Of a stretch of 64,000 nt of DNA, positions 21,421 through 56,456 are shown piece by piece; positions within the stretch are counted from its first letter, which is position 1, and each line of letters begins with the position of its first letter. Made by a program: the position numbers and the translations under genes. The notes beneath the pieces were generated by a model. That model searched no databases. It was not told where the DNA came from and worked only from the letters and a program-made list of their open reading frames with translations. The stretch is from the IMG/VR virus record IMGVR_UViG_3300027566_000003; one strand, 5' to 3'. The DNA is from a virus. Lineage: Duplodnaviria; Caudoviricetes.

Positions 21421-21638
21421 GTGCGTATGGAATGGTTGTTTTTGTTTGGATGTTTTGTGGATAAGTCGATATCTCAAGCAAAATGTTTGAGATATTTGTT
21501 ATTCACTGAAATATGTGGATCAAAGTTGAGAGGTAATTTGGGTTAGCTACCCATCTCTGTACGCCTCTCTTCTTTATATTTTTTTTATTTGGAAATTAGT
21601 ACAGAGAAAATAAAAGTACAGAAAGAAGGAATTTAGAG

Positions 21639-23426
21639 ATGTTGGTTAGCGAAGAAGTAGAAGTTACACTTCATCCATCAAATGTTAAACATTATGAAGA
21701 TTTAGGTTATGAAATACCAAGAGAAAAAAATTAAAAAGAAACTTGTGATTCGTAAGGGTACAAAAATAAAGGTAAAAATAGAAGATCTTTTACCTGGAAC
21801 TAATGTAAAGATTATGTATAGATGTGATTATTGTGGAAAAGAAAAGTCAGTATTATATTGTGATTATACAAGGAGATCTTCAAAAAAAGACTGTTGTATT
21901 GATTGTTTACCTTTATATAATTCTGAAATAAATAAATTAAAATGGGAAGAAAAATTTAAATCTGAAACGAAAACATGTAGTAAATGTAAAAGAGAATTTC
22001 CTAAAACGACTGAATATTTCTTTCGAAGCATAGATAGACCAGACAGTTTATCTTGTCAATGTAAAGAATGTGCTTGTGGAAAAGAAATATTCGGAATAGA
22101 AAAAGAAATTATCCCAGAGGGATTTAAAAAATGTTTAGATTGTAAAGAAGTTTTTGAAATAAATGAAACTAATTTTAATACTTATGTTAAATCTTCTGAC
22201 GGTTTTTATAATATTTGTATTAAATGTCAAATTAATAGAAGACATAAGGATTCTATAGATGGATATAAGAAGTGTAAAATTTGTAACAGAGAACTTGCTA
22301 TCAATAGAGATTTTTATGACGTAGATGATAGATGTTTAGATGGATATAGGGGTATTTGTCGTGAATGCAACGGCGAAGACTTTTATCCAGAATTTAAAGC
22401 AGATCCTTGGAGTCAAGAAGATATTGATATTATAATTGAAAATTATGAACATAAAACAATTAAAGATATATTACCTTTACTTACTTCCATAAGAACTGAA
22501 AAATCAGTAATGCACTTAGCACAAAATTAGATTTAAGAAAAATAGATAATCATATAAAATACTATAAGCAAATTCAGTATAAAATTATTGATAATAAATT
22601 ACATAAATTATGTAAGTGTTGTGAGGAATACTTACCAGTAGATAGAGCATATTTTCCTGATGACCAAAAATGTACAGATAATTTAAGAAATGTATGCCGA
22701 GTTTGTAAAGGAGAGGAATATTTATTTGATTCAAATATTCATATTTGGACACAAGAAGAAACTACTATATTAATAAATAATTATTCTAGTATGACAAACA
22801 ATGAAATAAGAAATAAATACTTTCCGTTTCTAATAAATAGGCAAATAATGTGCAAAGGAAATAATTTAAATCTTTATAAAGCACAAGAAACGTTAGGTAG
22901 AATGTTTATTGAATTAGGTAAAATTACGTCAGATAGATTATTATCTTTAGATAAATGGAAAGGCGAAGATAATCCTCAATATGATAGTCAAAGATTTGGC
23001 AATCTAAATCCTAATTATAAAAATGGAATTAGTGCTTTGTCACAAGAATTAAGAAGAAATATAAAACAGTGGAAATTTGATAGTATGGATAATGCTAATT
23101 ATAAATGTTTTATTTCAGGAAAGAATTTTGATGATATTCATCACTTATATAGTTTTGGAAGTATAGTTCAAGATACTTTAAATGAAACTGGAATACCATT
23201 ATATGAGAATATCTCTTCATATACACAAGAAGAATTACAACAATTAATTGATAAATGTTTGGAGATACATAATCGTTACCCGTTAGGGATATGCATGCAG
23301 AAAAAATATCATATCCAATTTCATGTTGAGTTTAGGTATGGAAACAATACTCCTGAACAATTTTATCAATTCCTTGAAAATTATTATGATGGAAAATATA
23401 AATATTTGGAAGAAGTAACTCAATAG
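21639..23426 (+). pseudogene. frameshifted multi-zinc-finger HNH-type free-standing endonuclease (track ORFs 21709..22530 and 22791..23426)
   Basis: Removing one A from the A7 run at 21724-21730 and adding one A to the A4 run at 22523-22526 gives one continuous ORF from ATG 21639; C-terminal IHHLYSF...HIQFH...YGNNTPEQF. Confidence 0.8.
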
Positions 23427-38262: not shown

Positions 38263-38685
38263 GTGAATTTTATGAATATATGTGAACACGGAACAATAAA
38301 AATAGATAGTATAAATCAAAGTATATTTTGTAATATATTAAAAGAAAATTGTTGTTTTGTAAGATGGTGTATTATTGAACAGTGTATTTTAAATACAAAT
38401 AATTATATTAATTGTAAGGTAAGGATTAACAATATGGTAAAAATAAAAAATAATATAGAAAAAGATAATAACATTAATTTAAATATTATTAATGATTCAA
38501 ATGAAGAATATTGCAAAGTGCTTTGGTTAAGAGATAATACATTCGCCATTGACTTTAAAGGGTATGGGATTTCTATTCAAATAGAAAATTTACTTAATAG
38601 GGGAAAAATTAAAGAATATATAAAAGTAAAATACGAAAGCGAAATTGGAAAAGAAGATTTTAAAATATTTCCAATTTATGAATAG
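38263..38685 (+). CDS. hypothetical protein (Cys-rich N-terminus)
   Basis: CEH...C...CCFVRWC; FAIDFKGYG. Confidence 0.55.
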   Translation: MNFMNICEHGTIKIDSINQSIFCNILKENCCFVRWCIIEQCILNTNNYINCKVRINNMVKIKNNIEKDNNINLNIINDSNEEYCKVLWLRDNTFAIDFKGYGISIQIENLLNRGKIKEYIKVKYESEIGKEDFKIFPIYE

Positions 38686-38707
38686 TATTTTAGATTTAAC
38701 AAACTAA

Positions 38708-38817
38708 AAAATGGTTTCTTATAAATTTGCGCAAATTTATAAGTGTAATTAAGAAGACTATATTATCCGAGATATAGTCTTCTTTCCCATTCTCTGATTC
38801 GGGAAGGAGAAAATAAT
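38708..38817 (+). promoter_or_regulatory. conserved double-hairpin/pseudoknot leader, copy 1
   Basis: ATGGTT - palindrome 38719-38742 - GTGTAA - 13-bp hairpin 38751-38784 (loop TATCCGAG) - TTCGGG - RBS AAGGAG. Confidence 0.7.
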
Positions 38818-39828
38818 ATGTTAGAAACTAAAGAGTTAAATATAAAACTTTCATCAAAAAATATTAATTATTATGAACAATTGGGATATAACATTCCAAA
38901 ATATAAAGACACTAGTGGTAAACAAAGAGTCAAAAAAGGAACTGAAATAAAAATTAAGATAGAACATTTACCATTACAATCACATAATAAAGTAGATGTT
39001 AAATGTGATTATTGTGAAAAAGTATTTCCAAAACCTTATTATTCTTACATTAATAGCAAAAATACATATGTAGTTAATAAAGATGCTTGTAATGATTGTA
39101 AATATATTAAGATAAAAGAATGTAATTTAATTAATTATGGATATGAAAATACTTCACAAATACCTGAATATAGAGAACATCTTAGATTATTAAAACGAAA
39201 TGATTTTGAGAAGGTAAAACGAGATTTTGAGAATATGAATTTTACACTTTTGACAACAGAAGATGAATATATTAATTCAAGACAATCTATGAAATGTATA
39301 TGCAATAATCATCCAAATATTATTCAAGAAAAAGAGCATTTCCATACCACAAAAGACGTAGGTTGTAAATATTGTCGGGCAGAAAATATTTCTGGAGAAG
39401 GAAATTGGAATTATCAAGGTGGAATTACTCCACTTCACAACTATCTTAGACAACATATATTGCAATGGAAAAAAGATTCAATATTATTTTATAATGGAAA
39501 GTGTGTTTTGACTAATAATACAACGACTATAGTACATCATTTATATTCATTTAATTTAATATTGCAAGAATTAATTCAAGAATTAAAATTAGATATGGAT
39601 TTTACTAAAATTAAAGTGGAAGATTTACCGGATGATCAATTAAAGTTATTAAAAGACAGATGTTTAGAATTACATTATAAATACGGGTTAGGTGTCTGTT
39701 TGTCCGATAATGTCCACAAACTTTTTCACTCACTTTATTCTTATGGCAATAACATTCCAGAACAATTCACAGAATTCCAACAACGTTATAACAATGGAGA
39801 ATTCACATCTCTCCTATTAGCAAAATGA
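38818..39828 (+). CDS. free-standing HNH-type endonuclease with N-terminal zinc domain
   Basis: YYEQLGY..KGTEIKIKIEHL..KCDYC; C-terminal IVHHLYSF...HKLFHSLY.YGNNIPEQF. Confidence 0.8.
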   Translation: MLETKELNIKLSSKNINYYEQLGYNIPKYKDTSGKQRVKKGTEIKIKIEHLPLQSHNKVDVKCDYCEKVFPKPYYSYINSKNTYVVNKDACNDCKYIKIKECNLINYGYENTSQIPEYREHLRLLKRNDFEKVKRDFENMNFTLLTTEDEYINSRQSMKCICNNHPNIIQEKEHFHTTKDVGCKYCRAENISGEGNWNYQGGITPLHNYLRQHILQWKKDSILFYNGKCVLTNNTTTIVHHLYSFNLILQELIQELKLDMDFTKIKVEDLPDDQLKLLKDRCLELHYKYGLGVCLSDNVHKLFHSLYSYGNNIPEQFTEFQQRYNNGEFTSLLLAK

Positions 39829-39942
39829 AAATATTAATAAATAAACTCACAAATAAATAATTATAGATAATGTACAAATCTATAATTATTACCAACAAAC
39901 AAAAAAACAACTCACAAAACCAACAACAAAACATCAAAATAT

Positions 39943-39995
39943 AAGGGGAGGTGGAATGGACATAAAAATCCATCTTACCTCCCCTTATTTTTTAT
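39943..39995 (+). terminator. intrinsic terminator
   Basis: TAAGGGGAGGT...ACCTCCCCTTA followed by a T-run. Confidence 0.7.
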
Positions 39996-40083
39996 TTTTC
40001 AATAAATCTATATTCCAAACAATAATCTCAAAATCCAAAGAATCTAATAATCTAAGAATCAAAAAAGAAAGGGTGAAAATACT

Positions 40084-40440
40084 ATGTCAGTAAGAGCACA
40101 TTGGGTTTTTCATAATGTTGCTACAGAAGCAGGTAATGGAGATGAATACAAAATTGCTAATGTTGGATCAAACACAATATTAGTTTTAGCATTGCAAACT
40201 ATACCAACAGTCGAATCAACACCAGTAACCTACACTATACATTTTGAAGCAAAAGGATTAATCGGTGATTATGTTTCTATACCAGTTTGGGATGAAACAA
40301 AAATGGATTTAGTCCTTAGTGCTACAGAAACAAGTGGTAAATTGTTTACAATCGATTTAACAGGGAAATCAAGTTTCCGTGTGAATCTTGTTTCTATAGA
40401 TGGTGGGAGTTTAAGTGTTCAAGGGAAGGTGATTGAGTAG
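40084..40440 (+). CDS. small beta-rich tail-appendage protein
   Basis: 118 aa, stop abuts the next ATG; resembles an internal segment of 49108..50790. Confidence 0.55.
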   Translation: MSVRAHWVFHNVATEAGNGDEYKIANVGSNTILVLALQTIPTVESTPVTYTIHFEAKGLIGDYVSIPVWDETKMDLVLSATETSGKLFTIDLTGKSSFRVNLVSIDGGSLSVQGKVIE

Positions 40441-43400
40441 ATGGTAGATTTAATTGCTCGTGGTTTATCAAAAACAAATGCTATAAAATATGGCACCATA
40501 GGCATAGACACAGTTCAATCTATACCAGACACAAGTATCATTAGATTCAACTTAGTCAATGGAATGTTTTTTGATTGGGATTTATCATCTACAGACACAA
40601 TGTTTAGATCAACTTATGATACAAATAATAATGGTATAGTTGACAAATCAGAAAAACTAAAAAATAGTACAGATTCTACATTTAATGATGGAAATTATTA
40701 TTTAGATCGTACTAATCATACAGGATTCGATACAGCAAATAAAATAACAGTTAATAAAACTAATCTTATTGAAAATCTTGCAACGTTTACAGGCACTACA
40801 TTACAAGATTTAATAGATTTTATAGATTCTCTTGATACATTTAAAAATGGTGAATTAAATCTTGGAACAAAAAATGCAGTGAATTCATGGAAAATTATAA
40901 AAGAAGATGATGATTTATCATTTTATAGATATGATGAATATAATTCTCAATATAATTTAATTACTAGTTTTGGAGCATCCGTAAAATCCGATAAATTCAT
41001 ATTGACGGAATGGCAAGGGAGTATCCAAGGTTTAAAAGGAGATGGAACTTCAAGAACTTTATTGAAAACATCAGTTGATGATAATGGAGTTTTAATTGGA
41101 AATTATTATGGTCGTGCTGGTTTAATTAGTAATGGATTATATTTTTCTATGTATCCAACTGGCGTTGATTCTACATTTGTTTTAAATTCATGTACTGATT
41201 CTGAAGGAACTTCTAATGCTCAATCAATAACAAAGTTCACAACAAGATATCAGCCATTAGTACATGGTTTTTATACTGGAATTAGTGGACTTGATTTAAT
41301 ATCTGTTCCAAGTGGTACAACTGTTCGTGTATGGGTTGAGTCAGATGACCAAGACGACATAATGTTTGAAACTATAAATTATATAAATTTTAAAAAGGGA
41401 TTAGGCTTATCAGTATCTATTGGTGTAAATAACATTGTTTTTTATGAACCATTCCCAATTGATAAAGATACTCCCTTTTATTTAAATATAGAATTTAGCA
41501 ATGCCGTAACAATTAAAGGGTCTATTACTAACAATAATCAAGTTGGAGATCCGAAATTTTATCCTATGGGCAGTATTATCAGAGAAACTGCTGCATTTGA
41601 AAAATTAGCGACTCAAGATTGGGTTACTGAGAATACAAAGAAAACTGACAGTATGACAACAGATAGTAGTATATTATATGCTTCTGCAAAATCAGTATCT
41701 TCATTATCTAAGGTTGTATCTGCTATTTCTGGTGGTGCATCTCCATTGGTTCCGATTTCTTGTGAAGACTTTTCATTGCTACAAACTGGCACAAATGGAC
41801 AGCATTATATTTTTACCAATGATGGGATAATAAATACTCAAATAATAAGTAAACGTGATCATTGCTATGTAGTTGAAACTTTTGATTATACGGAAATTTT
41901 ACCGACTCAATATATACAAGAAGAAGATTATGTTGTAATTTCAAATGAAGTTGTTTCAAATGGTGCAATTTTTATTACAAATATTACACCTAACACTTTA
42001 GGTAAAAATGTAAGTAAAACTATGAACGATTATCCTAATGAAGCAACAATAAATAGTATTGCATCCGATGATGATACATGGACAGTTACAGTAATTTGGG
42101 ATAGAGGGTCAGAAGAATATTGTGGTCAACCTAAAGTTAATGGTATTGATGTAATAAATATTACAAATGTTGGTGGAGGAACTTTTACCGGAACAGTGAT
42201 AGTTACAACTAGCGAAATTACTGATAATGCAATAACCGCAACTTTTGGAACAGCAAGTTATAGAGTAGGTGTAGTTGTAGAAACTCCTCCAATAATTACA
42301 ACATTAACACTAAATAATACTCCAACTGATTATCCCATATCTTCATGGTCTGTTCAACAAACAGAGGTTAAAGTTGGAGACATTATGACATTTGATATCA
42401 TATCGGATAAAGATATTGTTGCTGTGGAGGTAGCATCTTATGGTGCAGGATCATCTAAAATTATAAATGTAACACAAGGTGCGACATTTACTGATTTAAC
42501 ATTTACGGTAGCATCTACTGGTTTAGTATCATCTAGTAAAACAATTAAAGTACGTGTGAAAAGTCCTACTGGGTCTTGGTCTGATTATGTAGAAAGTTCA
42601 AATAGTATTATATGCAATGACTTAACTCCTACAATTAGTGTGAATACAATAACATATCCATCAACTCAAACTGCATTAAAAAATAGCGAAACTGCAAGTG
42701 TTACATTTAATACTTCAAATCAAACAAGTGTAATTGTGACTGCTATTGGTTCAGATATTTCAATAAGTGGAGTTAATTCTACTACTGGTGCTTTTACAGC
42801 AACTAGAATTGGTGGAAGTTATGTTGATAATATTGATAATTTTACTGGTGTTGCTAGAAAAGATAGTAACGGTTCAAGTGTAAGTGTAAATGGATGTATT
42901 TTTATTGCAAATATCGCTCCTGTATTGTCTTCACAAAGTTTATTAACTTATAATGTAATGTCGGGCGTTGGCACTGTTACAAATACCCTTACTTTTAGTC
43001 AAAAGGTAAAAATTAAAAGTATTTCAGCATTAACTGCCGGAACACTGGTAACTGGAACAACTTCGACTTATACAACAACATATGGATTAGGTATATCGGC
43101 ACAATCCTCAGATACACATTCTAATACAGCAAATACAACAAATTTAGTAGTTACAGGACTTAGTGGAATTGATTCTGTAAGTATTCCAATCAACTATTAT
43201 ATTAGAGGATTTGCTAATATTGTTTTGAATTTTACTTACTCTGAATTATCAAAAGTAATTGGAACTATGGTTACAGATGTTACTAAGTGTGTAGTATCAG
43301 GAAAAATATTAAGTACGCCAATATTCGAAATTGCTAAAGAATATATTACTTATTCCAGTGTGGTTTTAGCTACTGCTGATAAATGGAGTATAAGTGCAGA

Positions 43401-43491
43401 TGGTTTGAATTTCTTAATTCCAGATGCAGTAAAATCATTCGGATATACAACGGGAGTTGATTGTGAGATTAACATATCTGAAATTTATTAA
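40441..43491 (+). CDS. large virion structural / tail-fibre-like protein
   Basis: 1016 aa, Thr/Ser-rich beta repeats, YDTNNNGIVDKSE motif. Confidence 0.65.
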   Translation: MVDLIARGLSKTNAIKYGTIGIDTVQSIPDTSIIRFNLVNGMFFDWDLSSTDTMFRSTYDTNNNGIVDKSEKLKNSTDSTFNDGNYYLDRTNHTGFDTANKITVNKTNLIENLATFTGTTLQDLIDFIDSLDTFKNGELNLGTKNAVNSWKIIKEDDDLSFYRYDEYNSQYNLITSFGASVKSDKFILTEWQGSIQGLKGDGTSRTLLKTSVDDNGVLIGNYYGRAGLISNGLYFSMYPTGVDSTFVLNSCTDSEGTSNAQSITKFTTRYQPLVHGFYTGISGLDLISVPSGTTVRVWVESDDQDDIMFETINYINFKKGLGLSVSIGVNNIVFYEPFPIDKDTPFYLNIEFSNAVTIKGSITNNNQVGDPKFYPMGSIIRETAAFEKLATQDWVTENTKKTDSMTTDSSILYASAKSVSSLSKVVSAISGGASPLVPISCEDFSLLQTGTNGQHYIFTNDGIINTQIISKRDHCYVVETFDYTEILPTQYIQEEDYVVISNEVVSNGAIFITNITPNTLGKNVSKTMNDYPNEATINSIASDDDTWTVTVIWDRGSEEYCGQPKVNGIDVINITNVGGGTFTGTVIVTTSEITDNAITATFGTASYRVGVVVETPPIITTLTLNNTPTDYPISSWSVQQTEVKVGDIMTFDIISDKDIVAVEVASYGAGSSKIINVTQGATFTDLTFTVASTGLVSSSKTIKVRVKSPTGSWSDYVESSNSIICNDLTPTISVNTITYPSTQTALKNSETASVTFNTSNQTSVIVTAIGSDISISGVNSTTGAFTATRIGGSYVDNIDNFTGVARKDSNGSSVSVNGCIFIANIAPVLSSQSLLTYNVMSGVGTVTNTLTFSQKVKIKSISALTAGTLVTGTTSTYTTTYGLGISAQSSDTHSNTANTTNLVVTGLSGIDSVSIPINYYIRGFANIVLNFTYSELSKVIGTMVTDVTKCVVSGKILSTPIFEIAKEYITYSSVVLATADKWSISADGLNFLIPDAVKSFGYTTGVDCEINISEIY

Positions 43492-43498
43492 TTTGTAA

Positions 43499-43607
43499 TA
43501 AAAATGGTTGTCTAATAAGGTTGCAAATTTATTAGACGTAAAACAAGAGTCATGCTGTCACATGACTCTTTTCCATGTAAAACTTTTTGACAGAAAAGGA
43601 GAAATAA
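43499..43607 (+). promoter_or_regulatory. conserved double-hairpin/pseudoknot leader, copy 2
   Basis: ATGGTT - CTAATAAG-GTTGCAAA-TTTATTAG - CGTAAAAC - AAGAGTCATG/CATGACTCTT with loop CTGTCA complementary to TGACAG at 43588-43593. Confidence 0.75.
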
Positions 43608-45080
43608 ATGAAAAAAGATTTATATAAACATATAGATTTAACTAATATACCAAAAAATAAAAGCAGATATAATTGGTTAAATTCTATCGGTAAAGAATGT
43701 AAATTTATATATGATGATATTTCTGGTTATGTTACAATAGTTGATTATAATTATAAGAAGCATAAATTGTATATTAAATATCTCGATAATGAGATTTTTG
43801 AAATTAATACTGATAATTTTTCTGATTGTGCTTTTGGTAAATTGTTAGGAAAAATAACTAGTGAATTTAAAATTAAATTAGGCAAAACTATAAAAAACAA
43901 AAAACAAGATTTTATTATTATAGACAGGGAAAAACATATAAGTGCGAATAATAAGTGTTTTGATAAGATATATAAATATCATTGTAATAAATGTGGACAT
44001 GAAGATTGGTTAATAGAACATAATTTATTAAAAGGAATTGGATGCTCCTGTTGCGGTATAACTCCTAAAAAAGTTATTGAAGGAATTAATGATATCCCAA
44101 CAACTGCCCTTTGGATGGTTAAGTATTTTCAAGGTGGATACGATGAAGCAAAACTATATACAAAATCAAGCAGTAAAACAATTTTCCCGATTTGTCCTGA
44201 TTGCGGAAGAATAAAGAATAGACCTATGTCTATTAATTCAATTTATACAAATAAAACAATAAGGTGTACTTGTAAAGACGGTAGGAGTTATCCAGAAAAA
44301 ATAATGTTTAATATATTGGAACAATTACATATTGATTTTTTAAGTGAATATTCTCCAGATTGGATTAAACCATTAAGATATGATTTTTATTTTGAATTAG
44401 GTAATAAAAAATATATTGTCGAAATGGATGGTGGTATTGGTCACGGAAATAAAGTAGTATATAATAATTCAATATATACCGTAGAATATGCACTAAACAT
44501 TGATAATTATAAAGATAACCTAGCAAATATTAATAATATAGATATTATTAGAATTGACTGTAAAATTTCTGATATAGATTATATAAAAACTAATATATTT
44601 AATACAAAATTGTTAAATATATTAGAACTTTCAAGCATTGATTGGATAAAATGTGATGAATTTGCTTTAAGTAATTTAGTAAAAAAAGCTTGTGAAATAA
44701 AAAAAGAAAACGAAAATTTATCAACATCTGATATCGGTTTATTATTACATTTAAATCGTAGTACAATATGTAAATATTTAAAAGAAGGAAGTAAATTTGG
44801 TTGGTGTAATTATAATCCAAATAATGAGAGAATGAAATCGTTAGGTCATAAAGTAAATATTAGGAAAGTTGAGGTATTTAAGAATGATACATCTTTAGGA
44901 ATTTTTGAAAGCACAAATGATATAGAAAGAAAAAGTGAAGCTTGCTTTGGAGTAAAATTATTACAGTCTTGTATATCTCTAGTTTGTAATGGTAAACAAA
45001 AATCACACAAAGGATTTATTTTCAAGTATATAAATAACGAAAACCAAGAAGTGGTTAATAATTTATCCACTTCTTTTTAA
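43608..45080 (+). CDS. free-standing Vsr/DUF559-like endonuclease with zinc fingers and NUMOD1-like HTH
   Basis: RYDFYF...IVEMDGGIGH; CNKC, CSCC, CPDC; C-terminal FESTNDIER...ISLVCNGKQKSHKGFIF. Confidence 0.75.
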   Translation: MKKDLYKHIDLTNIPKNKSRYNWLNSIGKECKFIYDDISGYVTIVDYNYKKHKLYIKYLDNEIFEINTDNFSDCAFGKLLGKITSEFKIKLGKTIKNKKQDFIIIDREKHISANNKCFDKIYKYHCNKCGHEDWLIEHNLLKGIGCSCCGITPKKVIEGINDIPTTALWMVKYFQGGYDEAKLYTKSSSKTIFPICPDCGRIKNRPMSINSIYTNKTIRCTCKDGRSYPEKIMFNILEQLHIDFLSEYSPDWIKPLRYDFYFELGNKKYIVEMDGGIGHGNKVVYNNSIYTVEYALNIDNYKDNLANINNIDIIRIDCKISDIDYIKTNIFNTKLLNILELSSIDWIKCDEFALSNLVKKACEIKKENENLSTSDIGLLLHLNRSTICKYLKEGSKFGWCNYNPNNERMKSLGHKVNIRKVEVFKNDTSLGIFESTNDIERKSEACFGVKLLQSCISLVCNGKQKSHKGFIFKYINNENQEVVNNLSTSF

Positions 45081-45105
45081 TGTAAAAATAAAGGAGGTTA
45101 AAGTA

Positions 45106-47661
45106 ATGTCAATGACTAGTGACCAAATTTATGATTGGATTGTAGCCAATTGGACTTCAAAATCAAATTATAGAGAAAGTGCTGATGTTGGTATTCCAAC
45201 AGATACACCATCTCATTTTTTAATACATAACGATATTACAACTAAAAAAATATATACATGGGATGGAAATACGTGGTCTGCTGGATTAGGTGGAGGATCT
45301 GGTTCATTGACTGTTCAAAATGTAGCATCTGCAACAAATATAATAACTGCATTTAACAAGTTAATTTTAGTTGATGCATCATTGAATAATGTCACAGTAA
45401 TTCTACCATCTTCTACATCACTAACTATTGGACAGAGTTTATGCGTAAAAAGAACTGATAACTCAAATTATACATTAAGAATAATTGCTAATGGAACTGA
45501 AATAATTGATGGTAGTACAAATTCTATCTATTTATACGGGCAAAATGATTGTGTGACTTTAACTAGCACAGCAGTTGGTAAAATACATATTAGTGCTGAT
45601 AATCGTAATAGTACAGGGTCAAGTGCAAGTTATTTAAAAGTAACTAGAGGAACAACAGTTGCAATTGCAGATAATACAAATATAAAATTTCCTACTGTCG
45701 AGGATTCCCAAGGTACTGATATTTCATATGATACATCTACAGGAATTGTTAAATTAAAAGCAAATATTAAATATAGACTTAGATGTGCAATTAATATGAT
45801 GACATTTTCATCTGATAATGCTTATGCAGAGTTAAAATTTTATAACATAACAGCATCACAATTTGTTGGAATTTCTGGTTCCGCAAATCCAATCACAAGA
45901 AATACTAATGAAGCTAAAATTTTAGAAACAGAATATACTTTTACTCCAATTGTTGAAACTCAAATATCTCCTAGATTAACAGTTTCTTCTAATATTTCTA
46001 GTATTACAACAGCTTGGTTAGAAGTTGAAGAAATAAGTCACCAAGCTACAGTAATTCAAACTGTAGACTATTGTTTTGCAAGAGTTACTTCTAATGTTAC
46101 TACTGCAAATACTATTATTCCAGTTTCTCTAGTAGTTGGAAATATTGAAGTATCAAATAATATGTTTTACCTGAAAGTAGGTAGCACATATGAGTTAGAA
46201 GCATTTATAGAGTTTAATGGGAATACTGGTTCTGTTTGGGCAGAATATGTTTGGACTGATTCTGTTGGAACTTATTTACCAACTAGTACTACAGGTTTAT
46301 CTGTTCCTGTACAAAGTGCGTCAGCAGATTCTAGTTTACCAACAAAAGCTATTATTACTCCTACTCAAAATATGTCAGTAAAAGTAATGACAACAGGTAC
46401 TGTTGCAGGTATTACTGGTATAGCACTTACTAGGTCATATTTTAAAATTACGCAAATTGGATCAACGGCATGTACAGATAGTATTACCTTAAATACCATT
46501 AACTCAACTTCTTCATCAGGACTAAATGTTCATACTAAAAATACTATTACACCGACAAAATTAGGTGTAACAAATGAATTTGTTGGACAAAATGGTTCTG
46601 GTTCTGATTATGAAATTAGTGCGCTTAATTTAGGAAATGATATGTTTTATGCTTCTGTTTCAACAAAAATACCAGTTGGTGCATGGGGTGATGGTTGCAG
46701 AATGGATTTTAGTACACCTGCTGGTTCGAATAGTAATGTTCAGATTCCTAGAATGAGTATATTGCCGTTTTCAGGGAATGTGGGAATTGGTACAACCGAA
46801 CCAAATATTAATGATAAAGTAACCATTAAAGGTACGACTACTGATGGAACAACTAATATTATCAATGGGTTAGATAACAATGATATATCTGTATTTAAAG
46901 TAGATACTAACGGAAAATTAACAACCAATGATGTTGTTACTAATATAGTCAGTACGGCTGATGGAACTAATGGTTATGTAACAATGAATTCTGGTGGTAC
47001 TAGGACGGGTTTTTTTGAGTGGAAAAAACCAGATGATACAAGATTAGGGTTTATGGGAGACGGAGAATTTGATATAAATCTAGCATTAGAAAATGATGCT
47101 AATTTTAAGATTGTTAGTACTACTGGTGGATTTCTTGTACCAAAGATGACGAGAGCACAAAAAGATGCGATTATTTCTCCTATTTCTGGACTTGAGGTGT
47201 ATGTGACAGATGAAAGTTCTGGTAAGTATATTTATAACGGCACAAGATGGGATAAAGTTAGCAACCTTGCATATCTAAAAGCAAGTAATATAGTGGCAGT
47301 TAATCCAGCAGCTAATATATTACTTAACTTCAGTTCAGGTGTTGTGTCAAATGGGATTAAAACCAATCATGGTAATGGACAGTATACACTGTATCCCGGG
47401 GTTTATGAATTAATGGGGGTACAACTCTTGAATGAAAATGATGCTGGAATAAGTTATCAATTTTATAACTACACAACATCTAGTTATACAGGTGAACAAG
47501 GTAATAATGCCGATGTTGCAGGGTCAGCAGGAACAGGAAGTCCTGCATTTGCTATATTGGAATGTACAGTTGACACACAGATCGGACTTAGATGCACAAA
47601 CGATAGCGCGACAGTTACGGCCTCATTGGGTAACTGGTTGAAGATTAGACAGATATCATAG
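45106..47661 (+). CDS. tail fibre / receptor-binding protein
   Basis: 851 aa; GNVGIGTTEP, GFLVPKMTRAQ motifs; Thr/Ser-rich. Confidence 0.7.
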   Translation: MSMTSDQIYDWIVANWTSKSNYRESADVGIPTDTPSHFLIHNDITTKKIYTWDGNTWSAGLGGGSGSLTVQNVASATNIITAFNKLILVDASLNNVTVILPSSTSLTIGQSLCVKRTDNSNYTLRIIANGTEIIDGSTNSIYLYGQNDCVTLTSTAVGKIHISADNRNSTGSSASYLKVTRGTTVAIADNTNIKFPTVEDSQGTDISYDTSTGIVKLKANIKYRLRCAINMMTFSSDNAYAELKFYNITASQFVGISGSANPITRNTNEAKILETEYTFTPIVETQISPRLTVSSNISSITTAWLEVEEISHQATVIQTVDYCFARVTSNVTTANTIIPVSLVVGNIEVSNNMFYLKVGSTYELEAFIEFNGNTGSVWAEYVWTDSVGTYLPTSTTGLSVPVQSASADSSLPTKAIITPTQNMSVKVMTTGTVAGITGIALTRSYFKITQIGSTACTDSITLNTINSTSSSGLNVHTKNTITPTKLGVTNEFVGQNGSGSDYEISALNLGNDMFYASVSTKIPVGAWGDGCRMDFSTPAGSNSNVQIPRMSILPFSGNVGIGTTEPNINDKVTIKGTTTDGTTNIINGLDNNDISVFKVDTNGKLTTNDVVTNIVSTADGTNGYVTMNSGGTRTGFFEWKKPDDTRLGFMGDGEFDINLALENDANFKIVSTTGGFLVPKMTRAQKDAIISPISGLEVYVTDESSGKYIYNGTRWDKVSNLAYLKASNIVAVNPAANILLNFSSGVVSNGIKTNHGNGQYTLYPGVYELMGVQLLNENDAGISYQFYNYTTSSYTGEQGNNADVAGSAGTGSPAFAILECTVDTQIGLRCTNDSATVTASLGNWLKIRQIS

Positions 47662-47682
47662 TAATTAACAAAATAATAAATT

Positions 47683-47794
47683 AAATATGGTTACTTAATA
47701 AGAGTCGACGCTTATTAAGTGTAAAACGAGAGACTATGCCGTTACATAGTCTCTTTTCCATTATATTTAATCTCAATGACGGAAGGAGAATAAA
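47683..47794 (+). promoter_or_regulatory. conserved double-hairpin/pseudoknot leader, copy 3
   Basis: ATGGTT - CTTAATAAG-AGTCGACG-CTTATTAAG - TGTAAAAC - GAGAGACTATG/CATAGTCTCTT with loop CCGTTA complementary to TGACGG at 47777-47782. Confidence 0.75.
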
Positions 47795-48715
47795 ATGGGG
47801 AGAAAACTAACTAATGAGTTTATTAAAATAGGTGTCGAAAAATTAGGTTATAAATTAGCAAGTACATATGTTGGTCAATTAACAAAAATAACCATATATG
47901 ATGAATTAGGATATTATTATGTTGTTGGAGCAAAATCATTATTAAAAAATCATATTCCAGATAAATTTCATTTATTCAATCCTTACACAATACAAAATAT
48001 AAAATTATGGGCAAAATTAAATAATAAACCTTTTGAATTATTGAGTGATACATATGAAGGAAGTGACAAATATCTTCGATGGAAATGTTTAAAGGAAGAT
48101 TGCAGAGAAGAATTTGATGCAACTTGGAATAATATTATTAATAATAAAGGTTGCCCCTACTGTTCTGGGCATAAAGTAGGATTATCTAACTGTCTAGCAA
48201 CTAAAAATCCAGAACTTATAAAAGAATGGAATTTAATTAGAAATGGTAGTTTAACTCCTTTTGACGTAACTTGGTGTAGCGGAAAAGAAGTTTGGTGGAA
48301 ATGTAAGAAATGTAATCATGAGTGGAAAGCGAGAATAAGTAATAGAACTAGCACTAATAAAACAGGTTGCCCAGAGTGTAAAGAACCAAAAGGTGAAAAA
48401 GAATGTAAACGAGTTTTTGACTTAAAAAATGTTTATTATATACCTCAAAAAGAGTTTGATGGTTTAATTGGATTAAGAGGTGGTTTATTATCTTATGATT
48501 TTTATTTACCTAAATACAATTTATTGATTGAGTATCAAGGAGAATATCATGAATTTCAACAAAGCCATGTAAGTGAAAATAAATTTAAAACTCAACAAGA
48601 ACACGACAGAAGAAAAAGAGAATATGCAAAAGACAATAATATTAAACTTCTAGAAATATGGTACTGGGATATAGATAAGATTGAAAAAATTCTTGAAAAA
48701 GAATTGTTTATATAA
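47795..48715 (+). CDS. free-standing zinc-ribbon + Vsr/DUF559-like endonuclease
   Basis: NCLATKNPELIKEWN...WWKCKKCNHEW...GCPEC; SYDFYLPKYNLLIEYQGEYH. Confidence 0.8.
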   Translation: MGRKLTNEFIKIGVEKLGYKLASTYVGQLTKITIYDELGYYYVVGAKSLLKNHIPDKFHLFNPYTIQNIKLWAKLNNKPFELLSDTYEGSDKYLRWKCLKEDCREEFDATWNNIINNKGCPYCSGHKVGLSNCLATKNPELIKEWNLIRNGSLTPFDVTWCSGKEVWWKCKKCNHEWKARISNRTSTNKTGCPECKEPKGEKECKRVFDLKNVYYIPQKEFDGLIGLRGGLLSYDFYLPKYNLLIEYQGEYHEFQQSHVSENKFKTQQEHDRRKREYAKDNNIKLLEIWYWDIDKIEKILEKELFI

Positions 48716-50873: not shown

Positions 50874-51410
50874 GTGATAAAGAATCAACAAAAGTACATA
50901 CACGCATACGATTTATCTATGGAATCAACAGGATTTTGTATATTTGATAAAGATATGATTCCTGTATTAATCGATTCTATCCCTACTAAAAAAAACCAAT
51001 CTCATGGGAAAAGATTAAAAGTAATTTATGATAAGTTAATGGAATTAAGAGATAAATATCCACCTGAAGTCGTCGTGATCGAAAGAGGATTTAGTAGGTT
51101 TAATATGGCAACTCAGGTGATATACAGGGTTCATGGAATTTGTCAATTGGCTTATCATGATATAGAGACCGTCTACTACCCTCCCAAAACCGTTAAAGAA
51201 GCAATTTTAAGTGGTAATGCAACAAAGAAACAAGTGCAAGAGGAAATTAAGAAAAGATATCCTGATTTAGTTTTTAAGAATGAGGATGAATCAGATGCTT
51301 ACGCTGTAAGTTTAACATATTTTATTAAAACAGGTAAATTGGAATGGGAAAAAGATATTATTTTGAAAGAAAAGAAAATTAGAAAGAAAAAGGTTGTTGA
51401 GGATAGATAA
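50874..51410 (+). CDS. ruvC: RuvC-like Holliday junction resolvase
   Basis: AYDLSMESTG, VVIER, PKTVKEAILSGNATKKQV, DESDAYAV. Confidence 0.88.
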   Translation: MIKNQQKYIHAYDLSMESTGFCIFDKDMIPVLIDSIPTKKNQSHGKRLKVIYDKLMELRDKYPPEVVVIERGFSRFNMATQVIYRVHGICQLAYHDIETVYYPPKTVKEAILSGNATKKQVQEEIKKRYPDLVFKNEDESDAYAVSLTYFIKTGKLEWEKDIILKEKKIRKKKVVEDR

Positions 51411-51480
51411 TTTAATTTGTTGTAGAACTTTAGACACTTTAGATAAGTGTCTTTTATTGTGCGACAAATTAGTTGTACGT

Positions 51481-51596
51481 AAACAGACTAGGGAGAGCTA
51501 CCCGAAAGACACAACGCCTTAGTGTTTGTCTGTTTATTATCTTTTTGAGAAGAAATTTTAAGGTTAATAAAACAATATGAAAGGCGGTTGTTGGAG
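51481..51596 (+). promoter_or_regulatory. three-way-junction leader with anti-RBS loop
   Basis: AAACAGAC/GTCTGTTT outer stem; inner loop CGCCTT complementary to AAGGCG at 51581-51586. Confidence 0.6.
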
Positions 51597-53164
51597 ATGT
51601 TAGAAACAAAAGAAGTAGAAGTAGTTTGGTCTAATTGGGGAAAAGAATATTATATTCTAAAAGGTTATTGTTTTACTAGAATAGGCGACGCATTTATAGT
51701 TAAAATTGAAGATGTGCATCCTAATTCAAATATAACCATCGAATATGAATGTGATTATTGTAAAACACCCCAAAAAATATACTTTAGAGATTATAACAAA
51801 CAAAAAAGAGATATTATAAATAGAGATTGTTGCAGTAAATGTGCTCATTTTAAAGTTGCTGAAATAAAGAAAAAGAAAGCAGAGTTAGGAATATTAAATA
51901 AAACGATTCTGGTTATTGGAAGTTTTATCCCAATAGATTAAAAGAATTACATATATTTTTAAAAAATAATAAATTTGAAGATATCTTTAATATTGGTTAT
52001 TCACAATTAAAAGAATCTTTTTATCAAAATAAAGATAATGTAATTGATATGATATTTGAATTAAAATTAAATATTTTTGAAGTATGCAATAATTTACATA
52101 AGTTATATTTCTACATTAATGAAAATAACATACAAAATATTATAAATATTTTTATTGAAAGGCATAAATACTTTCCTTCCCTATTAGAAATGTCAAATAA
52201 TTTACAAATTTCTTATTCAATTTTAGCTAAATGTGGTGGTTATTATTATATAAAGAATAGTATGGGATATTATGATAATGACATTGGTAGTAAATTATTA
52301 GATACAAAAAATAGTATGGAGAATTTTGAAAAATATAAAAATGTTAGTGGTATTTATAAGATAACTAATATTAAAAATGCAAAAGTGTATATTGGGCAAG
52401 CAATAGATTTGTGGCATAGAATTAGTTCTGGATATATTTATACATTGCCTAAAGGAAAATGTCACAATGTTCACCTTCAAAGAGCGTGGGATAAAGACGG
52501 AGGAGAAAGTTTTTATATAGAAGTTATTGAAGTTTGTGATGTTGAATTTTTAACGAAAAGAGAACAATTTTGGATTGATCAAACTCAATGTTTTAACAAC
52601 AAATTTGGTTATAATGTTTTGGAATTTGCCGAAAGTAATAGAGGTGCTAAAATATCTGAAGAAACAAGGAAAAAGATGAGTGATGCTTCTAAATTAAAAT
52701 TCGGGTGGAATCATACACAAGAAACAAAAACTATTTTATCAGAAAAACATTCTAAATCTATTATTCAATTAAATTTAGATGGTATTTATATTAAAGAGTG
52801 GAAAAACTCCAATGATGCGTCAATTACATTAACTGGTAAAAATACAAGTGCTAATAATATAAGAGATTGTGCAAATGGGCGAGGTGCTTCAGCTTGTGGT
52901 TACATATGGATATATAAAGATAAGTATAATGAATTAACTTTTGACAAAATGGATTATGAAAATAGAGATACAACTAAACGAAGGGTTATTCAATTAAGTT
53001 TAAGTAATGAATATATAAAAACATTTAGGACAATAACTGAGGCAAAAAATACAACAAAAGCAAGTAATATAAGTGCATGTTTAAATGGTTTACAACATAA
53101 AAGTGGTGGATTCAAATGGATGTATGAAGAAGATTATTTAAATAAAATAAAGGAAGTGAATTAA
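51588..53164 (+). pseudogene. frameshifted GIY-YIG endonuclease with NUMOD3/NUMOD1-like repeats (track ORFs 51588..51941 and 52049..53164)
   Basis: One A added to the A4 run at 51900-51903 joins both ORFs with no stops; SGIYKITN..VYIGQA, HTQETKTILS, FRTITEA...ISACL. Confidence 0.8.
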
Positions 53165-54384: not shown

Positions 54385-54482
54385 ACTAGCAGGAGTAATG
54401 GCTTAATTACCCATTATCAAAGGGTACTCTCCCCTATCCTGCTAGTCAATATCTTTTAGTGAGAGTAAAATAAGAAAGAGAG
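54385..54482 (+). promoter_or_regulatory. three-way-junction leader with anti-RBS loop
   Basis: ACTAGCAGGA/TCCTGCTAGT outer stem; inner loop TACTCTC complementary to GAGAGTA at 54461-54467. Confidence 0.65.
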
Positions 54483-56456
54483 ATGATATTAATAATGATT
54501 AATTACAAAGAATTTCTAGAGCAAATGGAACTTGAAACAAAGAAAAATCATGTAATAGAAGCAGTAAACTTGACAATTAAGGACTTGGCAGAATATAATG
54601 TAATTGTACCAGAAGATAGTGAATATTACAAAGGATTAAGCCAATTACTTTATTATATAATGTTTTACCCGTTACCTAATAAGAAAGCAATTATTAACTT
54701 TCCTACGGGTTGTGGTAAATCAACTGCTATGAATGCAGGAATTTCCTATATGTTAAGAAATAAAATATTACAACCATACGCAGGAACAATAATATTAAAA
54801 CTTACAAAAGATGATTGTAATGAAACAGTTAGAGAAATCAATAAGAAAGCAAAATTAGATTTAGCATATGCATATCACTCTGGATTTGATAAACTAAACA
54901 ATAGAAAAAGAAGTGATATTTCTAATGATGAACTAAAAGAATATCCAGTAATTGTATTAACTCATAGTGGATATTTACAACTTATTGACAAAGATGATAT
55001 AAATAAACTATGTGAATGGTCTGATAAAAGAATTAATACAAAGCGTGGAAAATATAATACATATTATAGGGAGAGATTAATTGTGGATGAAGCAATTAAT
55101 AATGTTCAATTTATGACAGTTACAATGAAGTCAATTTCTGATATGGAAAATGCAATCATGAATATGGGAAACGAAGATATTTATGATAGATTTAATGGAT
55201 TCGTGACCAAAATCAAGAAAGAATTTTTGAAATCGTATGACACGAAGAAGAACAGTGTATTCTTTTGCGAGTTCGACAATATCGAAGTACCAGATGGGTT
55301 AGATGAGTTATTTTTCTCTTGTAAAGATAAACAAGCCAAAGACTCATATATGGCAATAAGAACAATGTTAGCAACTGGTGGTTATGTAAATATTCATGAG
55401 GATATTAAGTATAAATCAATCATCACCTACAAGTACATAGATATTAATAATCCATATTTCCATAAAGTAACATTAGATGCTACATCAGGAATTAATTATC
55501 TATATGAAATTGATAGCAATTCAGAAGTAAGAGATTTGCCGCAAATAAAATCTTATAAGAATATGCATCTAAATATATTTAATGGAGTCACCGGATCATC
55601 TGCTTCAATGAAAAAAGGATTAGAAGATGGATTGTTAGATGCAATCATTGAAGATATTAAGAGTAAGATTATTGGGGAAGAGAAAGTTTTGATTGTAACT
55701 AATAGTGAAGAACGAGATAAAATGATTATTGAAGCATTAAAGGGATATGAAAAATTAGACCAAATTGATGTCACCCACTATGGACGTACAGTAGGGAGTA
55801 ATAAATGGAGTGATTTTGACAAAATATTTGTATTAGGGATTCAATTGTTACCAGATGCAATATATCCTTTAATGTATTTCACTAGTTCTGTAAAAGAAGA
55901 AGAATTAACAGCAGAGAAATTTAATTCATTAGATACTACTCTTGTTCCAATAAAAGGCAATAGAAAATACAAACAAAAAGAATTTGAGAAAGTTAAAGTG
56001 TCTACTATTTCTGCAATGGTTGTGCAAACTTTAAACAGAATCAAATGTAGAGGTTATGCAGATGGAGAAATTCCTGAGACCCACGCCTATTTCATAAATC
56101 GTGATAAAGAGATAGATGCTCTCATTGCCCAAGCGATGCCAGATATTCAAATTACGTATAATTGGGGAATTGAATATAAGTCAAGAAAAAGTGGAAAAAC
56201 AGTAGAGAACAAGAAGGATGTTGTTGAGACATTAATTGAATTCTATGAGAAATTTAGACTTGACGAAAATTATAGAAATAAATTATTTGTCGATGAAATT
56301 TTTACTGAAAAAGGATTAAGTAAAGCAAAAATAAAAGAATTATTAGATATTAAGACAAATACTTTTAATATTTCTATGAGTAAACCTTTGATGTTGCAAT
56401 ATGTAAAAGATTATAATATTGATTTAATCTCTAATAATAGATATGTAAAATTTTAA
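54483..56456 (+). CDS. SF2 (DEAD-like) helicase-domain protein with possible C-terminal HTH
   Basis: FPTGCGKST, VLTHSG, IVDEA, LDATS, QTLNRIKCR. Confidence 0.75.
   Translation: MILIMINYKEFLEQMELETKKNHVIEAVNLTIKDLAEYNVIVPEDSEYYKGLSQLLYYIMFYPLPNKKAIINFPTGCGKSTAMNAGISYMLRNKILQPYAGTIILKLTKDDCNETVREINKKAKLDLAYAYHSGFDKLNNRKRSDISNDELKEYPVIVLTHSGYLQLIDKDDINKLCEWSDKRINTKRGKYNTYYRERLIVDEAINNVQFMTVTMKSISDMENAIMNMGNEDIYDRFNGFVTKIKKEFLKSYDTKKNSVFFCEFDNIEVPDGLDELFFSCKDKQAKDSYMAIRTMLATGGYVNIHEDIKYKSIITYKYIDINNPYFHKVTLDATSGINYLYEIDSNSEVRDLPQIKSYKNMHLNIFNGVTGSSASMKKGLEDGLLDAIIEDIKSKIIGEEKVLIVTNSEERDKMIIEALKGYEKLDQIDVTHYGRTVGSNKWSDFDKIFVLGIQLLPDAIYPLMYFTSSVKEEELTAEKFNSLDTTLVPIKGNRKYKQKEFEKVKVSTISAMVVQTLNRIKCRGYADGEIPETHAYFINRDKEIDALIAQAMPDIQITYNWGIEYKSRKSGKTVENKKDVVETLIEFYEKFRLDENYRNKLFVDEIFTEKGLSKAKIKELLDIKTNTFNISMSKPLMLQYVKDYNIDLISNNRYVKF

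Follow-up and report, generated by a model that had tools for sequence, protein, structure and literature searches.

We analysed a stretch of 64,000 nucleotides (nt) from a virus of the Duplodnaviria (Caudoviricetes), IMG/VR record IMGVR_UViG_3300027566_000003. This stretch, referred to here as the window, is the minus strand of a 122,175-base IMG/VR contig. The one sequencing run listed for it is of DNA, from a groundwater metagenome; no RNA run is listed. A module of about 115 nt occurs in it three times, each time directly ahead of a homing endonuclease gene (HEG). The module is a new, well-supported RNA family: its helices and a pseudoknot covary, it lies at the edge of inserted DNA, and its association with HEGs is exclusive. 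As far as its sequences can tell, it is probably a cis-acting structured mRNA leader at the 5′ end of a mobile, free-standing HEG cassette, in which a kissing complex would bury the Shine-Dalgarno sequence (SD). The cassettes are inserted just past the stop codon of phage structural genes. The best reading of the leader is that it provides such cassettes with portable translational control, or acts as their insulator.

Three copies of the leader in the window

A preliminary description of this DNA had placed a module with identical internal spacing at 38708, 43499 and 47683. The sites were right, but direct reading and alignment of all three put the true ATGGTT a few AT-rich bases downstream, at 38711, 43504 and 47687. 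The spacing was as described. One base past ATGGTT begins a 28-nt palindrome, whose centres (38730.5, 43523.5 and 47706.5) are each 19.5 nt from the start of ATGGTT, and GTAA (38745, 43538 and 47721) starts 14.5 nt from the centre in all three copies. After GTAA come the second hairpin, T(T/C)CCAT, bases that complement the loop of that hairpin, and AAGGAG, with the start codons (38818, 43608 and 47795) 6–8 nt further on. The features of the three copies, all on the + strand, are as follows; P1, P2 and P3 are the helices described below, and anti-SD is a pyrimidine box complementary to the SD.

38703..38817, +: leader copy 1, covariance-model score 84.3 bits
38711-38714, P1 5′ strand ATGG; 38717-38744, P2 with apical hexamer TGCGCA; 38745-38748, GTAA (copy 1)
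38751-38784, P3 with loop 38764-38771; 38785-38790, TCCCAT, the CCAT of which is the P1 3′ strand (copy 1)
38791-38795, anti-SD TCTCT; 38799-38803, pseudoknot 3′ strand TCGG(G); 38804-38809, SD AAGGAG (copy 1)
43496..43607, +: leader copy 2, covariance-model score 83.6 bits
43504-43507, ATGG; 43510-43537, P2 with apical hexamer TTGCAA; 43538-43541, GTAA (copy 2)
43545-43570, P3 with loop CTGTCA at 43555-43560; 43571-43576, TTCCAT (copy 2)
43583-43587, anti-SD CTTTT; 43588-43593, pseudoknot 3′ strand TGACAG; 43596-43601, SD (copy 2)
47679..47794, +: leader copy 3, covariance-model score 90.5 bits
47687-47690, ATGG; 47693-47720, P2 with apical hexamer GTCGAC; 47721-47724, GTAA (copy 3)
47728-47755, P3 with loop CCGTTA at 47739-47744; 47756-47761, TTCCAT (copy 3)
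47771-47774, anti-SD TCTC; 47777-47782, pseudoknot 3′ strand TGACGG; 47783-47788, SD (copy 3)

The three leaders are about 70% identical to each other in alignment, and the folding energy of each ~115-nt stretch is far lower than that of shuffled sequences (z about -4). Searches of the 122-kb record with nhmmer and a covariance model recover the three copies and no others (84–91 bits, E about 1e-11 to 1e-12), so the module is not a chance occurrence. This confirms the three-copy module as real and far beyond chance. The idea that zero-spacer palindromes are a genome-wide trait was rejected, as there are six of them, including the three modules, versus 3–10 in shuffled sequences.

Distribution of the leader

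Further copies were collected with the exact pattern ATGGTT, 28 N, GTAA, gap, TYCCAT, gap, AAGGAG. It matched 37 stretches in viral contigs, four of them by chance and without the palindrome, at least 119 in metagenome contigs, and 17 in species-representative genomes, two of which are confirmed by the covariance model. This model, built on 29 copies, recovers the pattern-collected copies at 75–114 bits and finds further copies missed by the pattern. The search over this and related genomes, which the preliminary description had proposed, leaves 92 distinct copies from viral, metagenome and metagenome-assembled genome (MAG) contigs that survive a check for P2 pairing among the matches listed. 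The counts given below, over 92 copies, 78 distinct P2 hairpins, 77 pseudoknot runs and 81 open reading frames (ORFs), are likewise counts among the matches listed.

Phage contigs carry one to three copies. Among the species-representative genomes, a Clostridium sp. MAG is the only cellular genome with a high-scoring copy on a long contig; the second cellular match, possibly mis-binned, comes from a Cloacimonadota MAG contig of 2.6 kb. The leader does not correspond to a known RNA. A search of the window against Rfam 15 returned tRNA as the sole match and no family at the gathering threshold, copy 2 scored 10–19 bits at best against gathering scores of 47–100, and L046 (L numbers denote related contigs) gave nothing at E ≤ 1. 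Searches of cultured phages with megablast and blastn, using the region and a leader as queries, found no match. MT835469, the best cultured-type relative of the nuclease behind copy 3, is without the leader.

Structure of the leader RNA

The leader is about 110–125 nt long and folds around a three-way junction. The junction is closed by P1, in which AUGG pairs with CCAU. P1 is nearly invariant in the main class of leaders, and a G-C pair is replaced by A-U in 2–4 copies of a variant class (L005:6754, L037:7852, L030:399 and L042:490), which supports the closing helix and hence the three-way junction. P2 is an AU-rich hairpin of 14+14 nt without exception in the pattern-collected copies; one copy found only by the model carries a single inserted base. 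P3 is a hairpin of 9–14 bp with runs of A and U on its flanks. Conservation is concentrated at the junction (AUGG-UU, GUAAU and UYCCAU), where the search pattern itself fixed P1 and, in part, the junction boxes of the collected copies.

The helices covary strongly. Pairs are formed by 98.2% of cells in a structure-guided alignment of 34 distinct rows and 98.3% in one of 81 distinct rows, with double-sided changes in 10/10 P2 pairs and 9/9 P3 pairs. The covariation score is 0.72 (34 rows) or 0.69 (81 rows) compared with 0.23 for shuffled alignments, none of 500 shuffles reaching the observed value, and it drops to 0.07–0.13 when the pairing partners are slid. Although these alignments were fitted to the model and so favour it, the slid controls and the raw sequences give the same picture.

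The P3 loop takes part in a pseudoknot. The whole loop pairs over 6–8 bp with bases abutting the SD, AAGGAG, and each of the 27 distinct loop words is matched in cis when sequences are analysed one by one. A Watson-Crick run of at least 6 is found in 80% of copies, compared with 1.8% when loops are matched against the tails of other copies, and the 3′ end of the run is 0–1 nt from AAGGAG in 75 of 77 copies. A translational pseudoknot had been suggested in the preliminary description; the pairing of the loop with the flank of the ribosome binding site (RBS) has the support of strong, cis-specific covariation, and its action on translation is predicted from the sequence.

The SD has a second potential partner within the leader. 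Of 92 copies, 86 contain the pyrimidine box UCUCU(U), which lies 10–14 bases 5′ of the SD and can pair with AAGGAGA (TCTCT in 61, CTCTT in 12, other words in 13, none in 6). Changes in the box convert U.G to C-G, or shift the register along with the A-run. Helix 5 of the covariance alignments, which would pair the SD, is 97.6–98.7% paired. The loop of the anti-SD/SD hairpin contains the 3′ strand of the pseudoknot, which directly adjoins the 3′ strand of that hairpin. This allows both contacts to form at once, giving a loop-loop kissing complex that encloses the SD.

The pattern of base changes reveals which strand folds. Stem positions in the 78 distinct P2 hairpins that depart from Watson-Crick pairing comprise 98 G.U pairs, 3 A.C pairs and 79 mismatches, most of the latter at one conserved purine-purine position; the first set of P2 sequences had given 35 G.U and 0 A.C. 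As a G.U pair would read A.C on the other strand, this asymmetry indicates selection on the folded sense strand, and together with the pseudoknot onto the RBS flank it points to mRNA as the folded molecule. The 98 G.U versus 3 A.C also rule out three interpretations of the palindrome as a DNA element, namely a duplex protein-binding site or operator, a cruciform, and an N4-like promoter hairpin in the template strand. An upstream ORF starting from ATGGTT was rejected, as the frames stop after 3 to >30 codons without conserved length or sequence.

Nucleases encoded behind the leader

The three leaders in the window are followed by these genes:

38818..39828, +: cargo 1, H1, 336 aa; homing-endonuclease-like (phrog_12131, phrog_5104, phrog_681)
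43608..45080, +: cargo 2, H2, 490 aa; homing endonuclease with a phrog_9084/4538/7140 domain in common with H3
47795..48715, +: cargo 3, H3, 306 aa; two DUF4379 treble-clef fingers and an I-Bth0305I/Vsr-like catalytic domain

H1, H2 and H3 are mutually unrelated by BLASTP. The AlphaFold model of H3 (pLDDT 71) has the catalytic domain of I-Bth0305I and Vsr as its best domain-level matches in the PDB (I-Bth0305I, 3r3p: TM 0.69 by target, prob 1.00; Vsr, 1cw0 and 1vsr), and cultured Firmicute phages have relatives of H3 that carry the annotation (VSR) homing endonuclease. PDB sequence searches with H1 and H2 gave nothing useful. H1 begins with a domain, 'MLxTKEvEv..Y..lGY', that is common to many cargo proteins, and it matches homing-endonuclease PHROGs only; its C-terminal HNH-like motif is a candidate from sequence. 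The protein labels of the preliminary description, one HNH-like and two Vsr-like nucleases, were therefore broadly right: they hold for H3, and for H2 by PHROG, and for H1 they reduce to the homing-endonuclease PHROGs.

All 81 ORFs of at least 80 aa behind leaders match the first cargo set and are HEG-like; the remaining ORFs are truncated or cut by contig ends. By PHROG and Pfam assignment the cargo includes DUF4379 plus I-Bth0305I/Vsr-like, DUF7487, GIY-YIG with NUMOD, I-HmuI-like and HNH PHROG families. PHROG, Pfam and the H3 model thus agree that the cassettes encode nucleases of known HEG families. Some nuclease genes are decaying behind an intact leader: L008:12332-12433 (identical to L046) has a premature TAA after 34 codons, the remaining ORF being open in frame, and in L009/L048 the usual start ATG has become ACG.

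The N- and C-terminal halves of H1 each have separate paralogues (21639-23426, 51597-51863 and 69546-69893, the last beyond the window, in window numbering), so the nuclease genes are assembled from shuffled domains. These paralogues lack the main leader.

Genomic setting and mobility

Empty sites show that leader and nuclease gene are present or absent together between flanking genes that are conserved. L049, L046 and L048 have in common a 164/166-aa gene and a ~90-aa gene, which in L049 are separated by no more than a 50-nt spacer. Homology of L046/L048 to L049 is lost about 5 nt before ATGGTT and regained just past the nuclease stop codon, and by this comparison the cassette extends no further than about 13 nt 5′ of ATGGTT. 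L049 is also empty at the next junction, where L020 and L021 hold a leader and HEG, and in L195 the first gene pair is adjacent as well. These comparisons were made at sites in related contigs.

The cargo changes behind a shared leader. From the upstream gene as far as the start codon, leader included, L046 matches L048 with 90% identity. Unrelated nuclease ORFs of 1.1–1.3 kb follow, and in the next gene the two contigs are similar again, at 80% identity. Different cassettes occupy the same site in L026/L033 and L019, in L013 and L031, and in L024 and L037. Copies 1 and 3 of the window share 80–100% identity with leaders in otherwise dissimilar contigs and about 50% on both flanks, and P2 and P3 are reassorted within the leader. 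In most loci the leader starts 7–49 nt past the stop codon of a co-oriented gene. No general conserved motif was found at the 3′ end of the cassettes, where the SD of the next gene is usually within 10–40 nt. One of the explanations offered in the preliminary description, that the module is the conserved end of a mobile nuclease cassette, is supported by the empty sites and the cargo swap; in the relatives lacking the nuclease gene, the leader is absent along with it.

In the window the cassettes interrupt a structural gene block. The genes adjoining the leaders are:

38263..38685, +: structural-block gene, 140 aa; stop 25 nt before the ATGGTT of copy 1
40441..43491, +: gene 5′ of copy 2, 1016 aa, tail-sheath PHROG; stop 12 nt before ATGGTT
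45106..47661, +: gene between cassettes 2 and 3, 851 aa, PTL_trimer tail protein

The block runs from the terminase gene (24696) to about 50.8 kb. Its genes are all structural and in + orientation, with the nuclease genes interspersed, and encode among others a virion protein, the tail-sheath PHROG, the PTL_trimer protein and an XepA-like protein. Genes such as YomU_Tube, YomN and YomX in relatives mark the block as an SPbeta-like tail module. A homologue of the 140-aa gene (38263..38685) precedes the leader in L004. A pattern search found no relatives of the 1016-aa protein, and tblastn gave only distant jumbo-phage matches; the candidate P0004 was rejected as a homologue. One window protein is also encoded on a contig of 236,919 bases. 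The 851-aa gene (45106..47661) starts 25 nt past the H2 stop codon and ends 25 nt before the ATGGTT of copy 3. Behind both H2 and H3, about 25 nt separate the nuclease stop codon from the start of the next structural gene, so transcription of the tail genes must read through the cassettes.

Two further features lie close to the cassettes. The nuclease at the tail-tube site (window 39829-39960; also L006, L042, L023 and L016) has behind it a hairpin that is rich in AT and palindromic at its centre (TGTACA, TTGCAA or TAGCTA), followed by a C/A-rich, G-poor spacer and, in L042 and L023, by a strong terminator. This hairpin and spacer may belong to the phage backbone. A RuvC-like resolvase gene (window 50874-51410) is located just downstream of the three cassettes and has the same position in L041, L042 and L043.

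The read-through itself speaks against the idea that each nuclease gene brings its own late promoter, with ATGGTT, GTAA and the AT-rich tract serving as DNA signals for a phage RNA polymerase; the preliminary description had a YonO-type enzyme in mind. The promoters of the phage polymerase are unknown (PMC5467207). The boxes are indeed conserved at a fixed spacing, and in L195-L199 a leader of a related type lies immediately behind a perfect TTGACA-N17-TATAAT. However, the spacer between the boxes is the covarying P2 hairpin, in which selection acts on the folded sense strand, covariation extends to P1 in the variant class, and the cassette has little DNA of its own 5′ of ATGGTT. ATGGTT and GTAA do not resemble a sigma-70-type promoter, which would have conserved -35 and -10 elements 16–18 nt apart; they are separated by 28 nt. 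No -10-like hexamer occurs at a fixed upstream position, and no conserved promoter-like element was found inside or upstream of the leader. Sigma-70-type sites are not enriched (94 found, 98.7 expected), and those of copy 1 fall in variable stems. The late promoter is therefore unsupported, and we regard it as very improbable.

The AU tract and hairpins could instead be a site for an RNase (Y, III or E-like) or a weak terminator, separating the message of the structural gene from that of the nuclease. There is a precedent in the T4 segB, segG and Aeh1 mobE transcripts, which are cut by RNase E, mobE also having a weak terminator (PMC2988022). About 15–20 nt of A/U-only sequence precede P1, and the A and U runs beside P3 would also fit. 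Against this, a consensus scan flagged no + strand terminator at any copy. P3 is followed by UUUCCCAU or UUUUCCAU, a U tract interrupted by CCC or CC, which does not amount to an intrinsic terminator at 38.7, 43.5 or 47.7 kb, and a strong terminator is unlikely because the essential tail genes follow about 25 nt behind the nuclease genes with no room for promoters. Processing would also leave the cis-matched pseudoknot onto the RBS flank unexplained. A role in processing or stabilisation is possible; that it accounts for the leader seems to us a long shot.

Proposed mechanism

Our proposal of a portable translational control leader runs as follows. The nuclease gene would be transcribed by read-through within the late structural operon. 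In the resulting transcript, pairing of the P3 loop with the RBS flank and of UCUCU(U) with AAGGAGA would form the kissing complex and bury a strong SD. The nuclease would then be translated weakly or conditionally, and its neighbours would be spared polar damage. That the fold represses translation, and that it does so on read-through transcripts, is what we infer from its architecture and genomic position.

The T4-family HEGs I-TevI, I-TevII, I-TevIII and segB, as well as Aeh1 mobE, have RBS-sequestering RNA structures (PMC2988022). Like these, the leader is a cis-acting RNA in front of phage HEGs on long polycistronic transcripts, with the SD predicted to be paired, and the purpose of the T4-family hairpins, limiting nuclease translation, is the one we propose for the leader. 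The T4-family structures are simple, gene-specific hairpins that are relieved by a late promoter inside the structure, whereas the leader, in which no conserved promoter-like element was seen, has one conserved multi-helix fold for many unrelated HEGs and is located at the edge of mobile DNA.

Several observations weigh against this mechanism. P1 hardly varies in the main class and was fixed by the search pattern, so that its support comes from the 2–4 variant copies. P4, the anti-SD/SD helix, is short (4–6 bp, with a wobble), and as the SD is not free to vary, most of the support for P4 comes from one side. Folding of nested structures only, which leaves out the pseudoknot, does not set these SDs apart as less accessible: they are unpaired with a probability of 0.27, 0.72 and 0.28 in the three copies, and 21 other genes in the window have a median of 0.64. 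That a perfect SD is kept under a repressing fold hints at a switch. The self-complementary P2 loop described below and the fixed length of P2 have no role in translational control as proposed. Finally, a pseudoknot beside the RBS can also activate translation, as in IncI/IncB plasmids.

The last point amounts to a separate explanation, in which pairing of the P3 loop 5′ of the SD blocks closure by the anti-SD, or creates a standby site, and so turns nuclease translation on. In the repZ/repA leaders of IncI-alpha/IncB plasmids, the activating pseudoknot depends on a leader peptide being translated, and an antisense RNA blocks it. The arrangement is shared, in that the loop of a hairpin pairs with a few bases beside the RBS of the gene under control; the strong, invariant SD has been kept, and in nested folds it is partly closed by the pyrimidine box. 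However, the pseudoknot and the anti-SD/SD hairpin are contiguous and can coexist, the ATGGTT frames are not conserved and provide no leader peptide, and we found no antisense features. We think activation unlikely, and continue to favour a repressing leader.

The self-complementary P2 loop

In 77 of 78 distinct hairpins, P2 has a self-complementary tetramer at its apex, which is one of five words: TGCA (39), TCGA (20), GCGC (10), GGCC (7) and AGCT (1). The apical hexamer is usually palindromic too (TTGCAA 39, TTCGAA 19, TGCGCR 10), and the three window copies have three different hexamers. In 57 of 78 hairpins the position next to the apex is a purine-purine mismatch. A hairpin loop does not need to be self-complementary, and the P3 loops are not. 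Homogenisation of the palindrome by template switching is unlikely as the sole cause, because wobble pairs and the conserved purine-purine mismatch persist beside the apex.

The dimerisation initiation site (DIS) of HIV-1 is a 6-nt self-complementary loop word with unpaired purine flanks that serves genome dimerisation and packaging in an animal virus. P2 resembles it in exposing a self-complementary hexamer in a hairpin loop, in having purine flanks, and in that the loop word varies between lineages with self-complementarity kept. Unlike the DIS, the P2 hairpin is part of a phage mRNA leader, in which dimerisation is only a candidate function. Self-complementary loops with purine flanks are the hallmark of kissing-loop dimerisation elements; for P2, such a function is a lead, not a finding.

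The P2 loop is central to another explanation, that the leader is a sensor. A small molecule or a phage or host protein bound in a junction pocket, or homodimers kissing through the P2 loops, would switch the pseudoknot and thereby nuclease translation. The conserved junction between covarying helices, the invariant length of P2 and the self-complementary apex, also present in a few copies read of sequence-unrelated leaders with the same layout, are in line with a sensor. A conserved junction and a pseudoknot reaching the SD region are shared with purine-class three-way-junction riboswitches and preQ1-II. Unlike in these, the loop contact is made with the expression platform and not with another loop, and there is no match to Rfam: no known aptamer fits the leader, the best being preQ1-II at 17.7 bits against a gathering score of 47. 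In addition, the junction boxes were partly fixed by the collecting pattern. We consider a sensor to have a small chance of being correct, and retain translational control as the more plausible function.

Leaders with a related layout

The variant class mentioned above is divergent in sequence (ATAGGY, TACTGATA, CTTTTAT) and includes L005:6754-6855, L037:7852-7944, L030:399-487, L042:490-592 and L200:~480-600, the last having a loop with GCGC. Its P3 resembles an intrinsic terminator (G+C-rich stem and U run), its pseudoknot overlaps a weak SD, and it precedes DUF7487-type HEGs, for example after the YomU_Tube gene.

A second leader type occurs in the window at 21515-21640 and 51478-51620, before two further HEG-like ORFs that start at 21639 ('MLVSEEVEV', broken by a stop codon near 21732) and 51617 ('MLETKEVEV'). 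It consists of an outer stem, an inner GGG-nnAGCUA-CCC hairpin with a palindromic loop, and a second loop word that is complemented next to the RBS (CTCTGTAC/GTACAGAG and CGCCTT/AAGGCG). A third type is found upstream of DUF7487 HEGs in L195:8107-8250 and L196-L199, directly behind the perfect TTGACA-N17-TATAAT. Its P1 is (U)UAGGGA/UCCCUA, its P2 is AUAAGU/ACUUAU with a loop holding UGAUCA, and its P3 is GGGGAU/AUCCCC with a loop, UCCUGA, that is matched by UCAGGA before AGGAGG.

The same layout is present at 54385-54482 of the window, before a DEAD-box helicase-like gene (54483-56456), indicating that the architecture is not confined to nucleases. This leader has a 9-bp outer stem, ACTAGCAGG/CCTGCTAGT, a first hairpin TAATGG/CCATTA with a loop holding TAATTA, and a second hairpin AGGG/CCCT with the loop TACTCTC, which is matched by GAGAGTA at 54462.

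These phages thus have at least four leader types, unrelated in sequence, that share one layout: an outer stem, then a hairpin whose loop is self-complementary, then another hairpin with a loop that pairs beside the RBS. In the few copies read, the first loop is palindromic in all types. Our tentative extrapolation, which we would put forward as a speculation with some way to go, is a wider phage leader architecture in which the self-complementary loop drives DIS-like homodimers, or the junction binds a ligand or protein, and in this way gates translation or processing of mobile genes.

Implications

HEGs need enough expression to spread without harming the phage operons they invade. To our knowledge, control of HEG expression has until now been known only as gene-specific hairpins in T4-like phages. 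The regulatory principle is established in the T4-family HEGs; what is new here is one portable fold within mobile DNA. A conserved RNA fold that is part of the mobile DNA and is exchanged among unrelated nuclease families represents a ready-made expression-control cassette, and the leader is possibly also the homology that lets nuclease ORFs swap. With it, HEG insertions in uncultured phages of the Firmicute type can be delimited precisely at their 5′ edge, and Rfam gains a strongly covarying new RNA family. As a compact natural part, it could insulate a toxic gene inside an operon.

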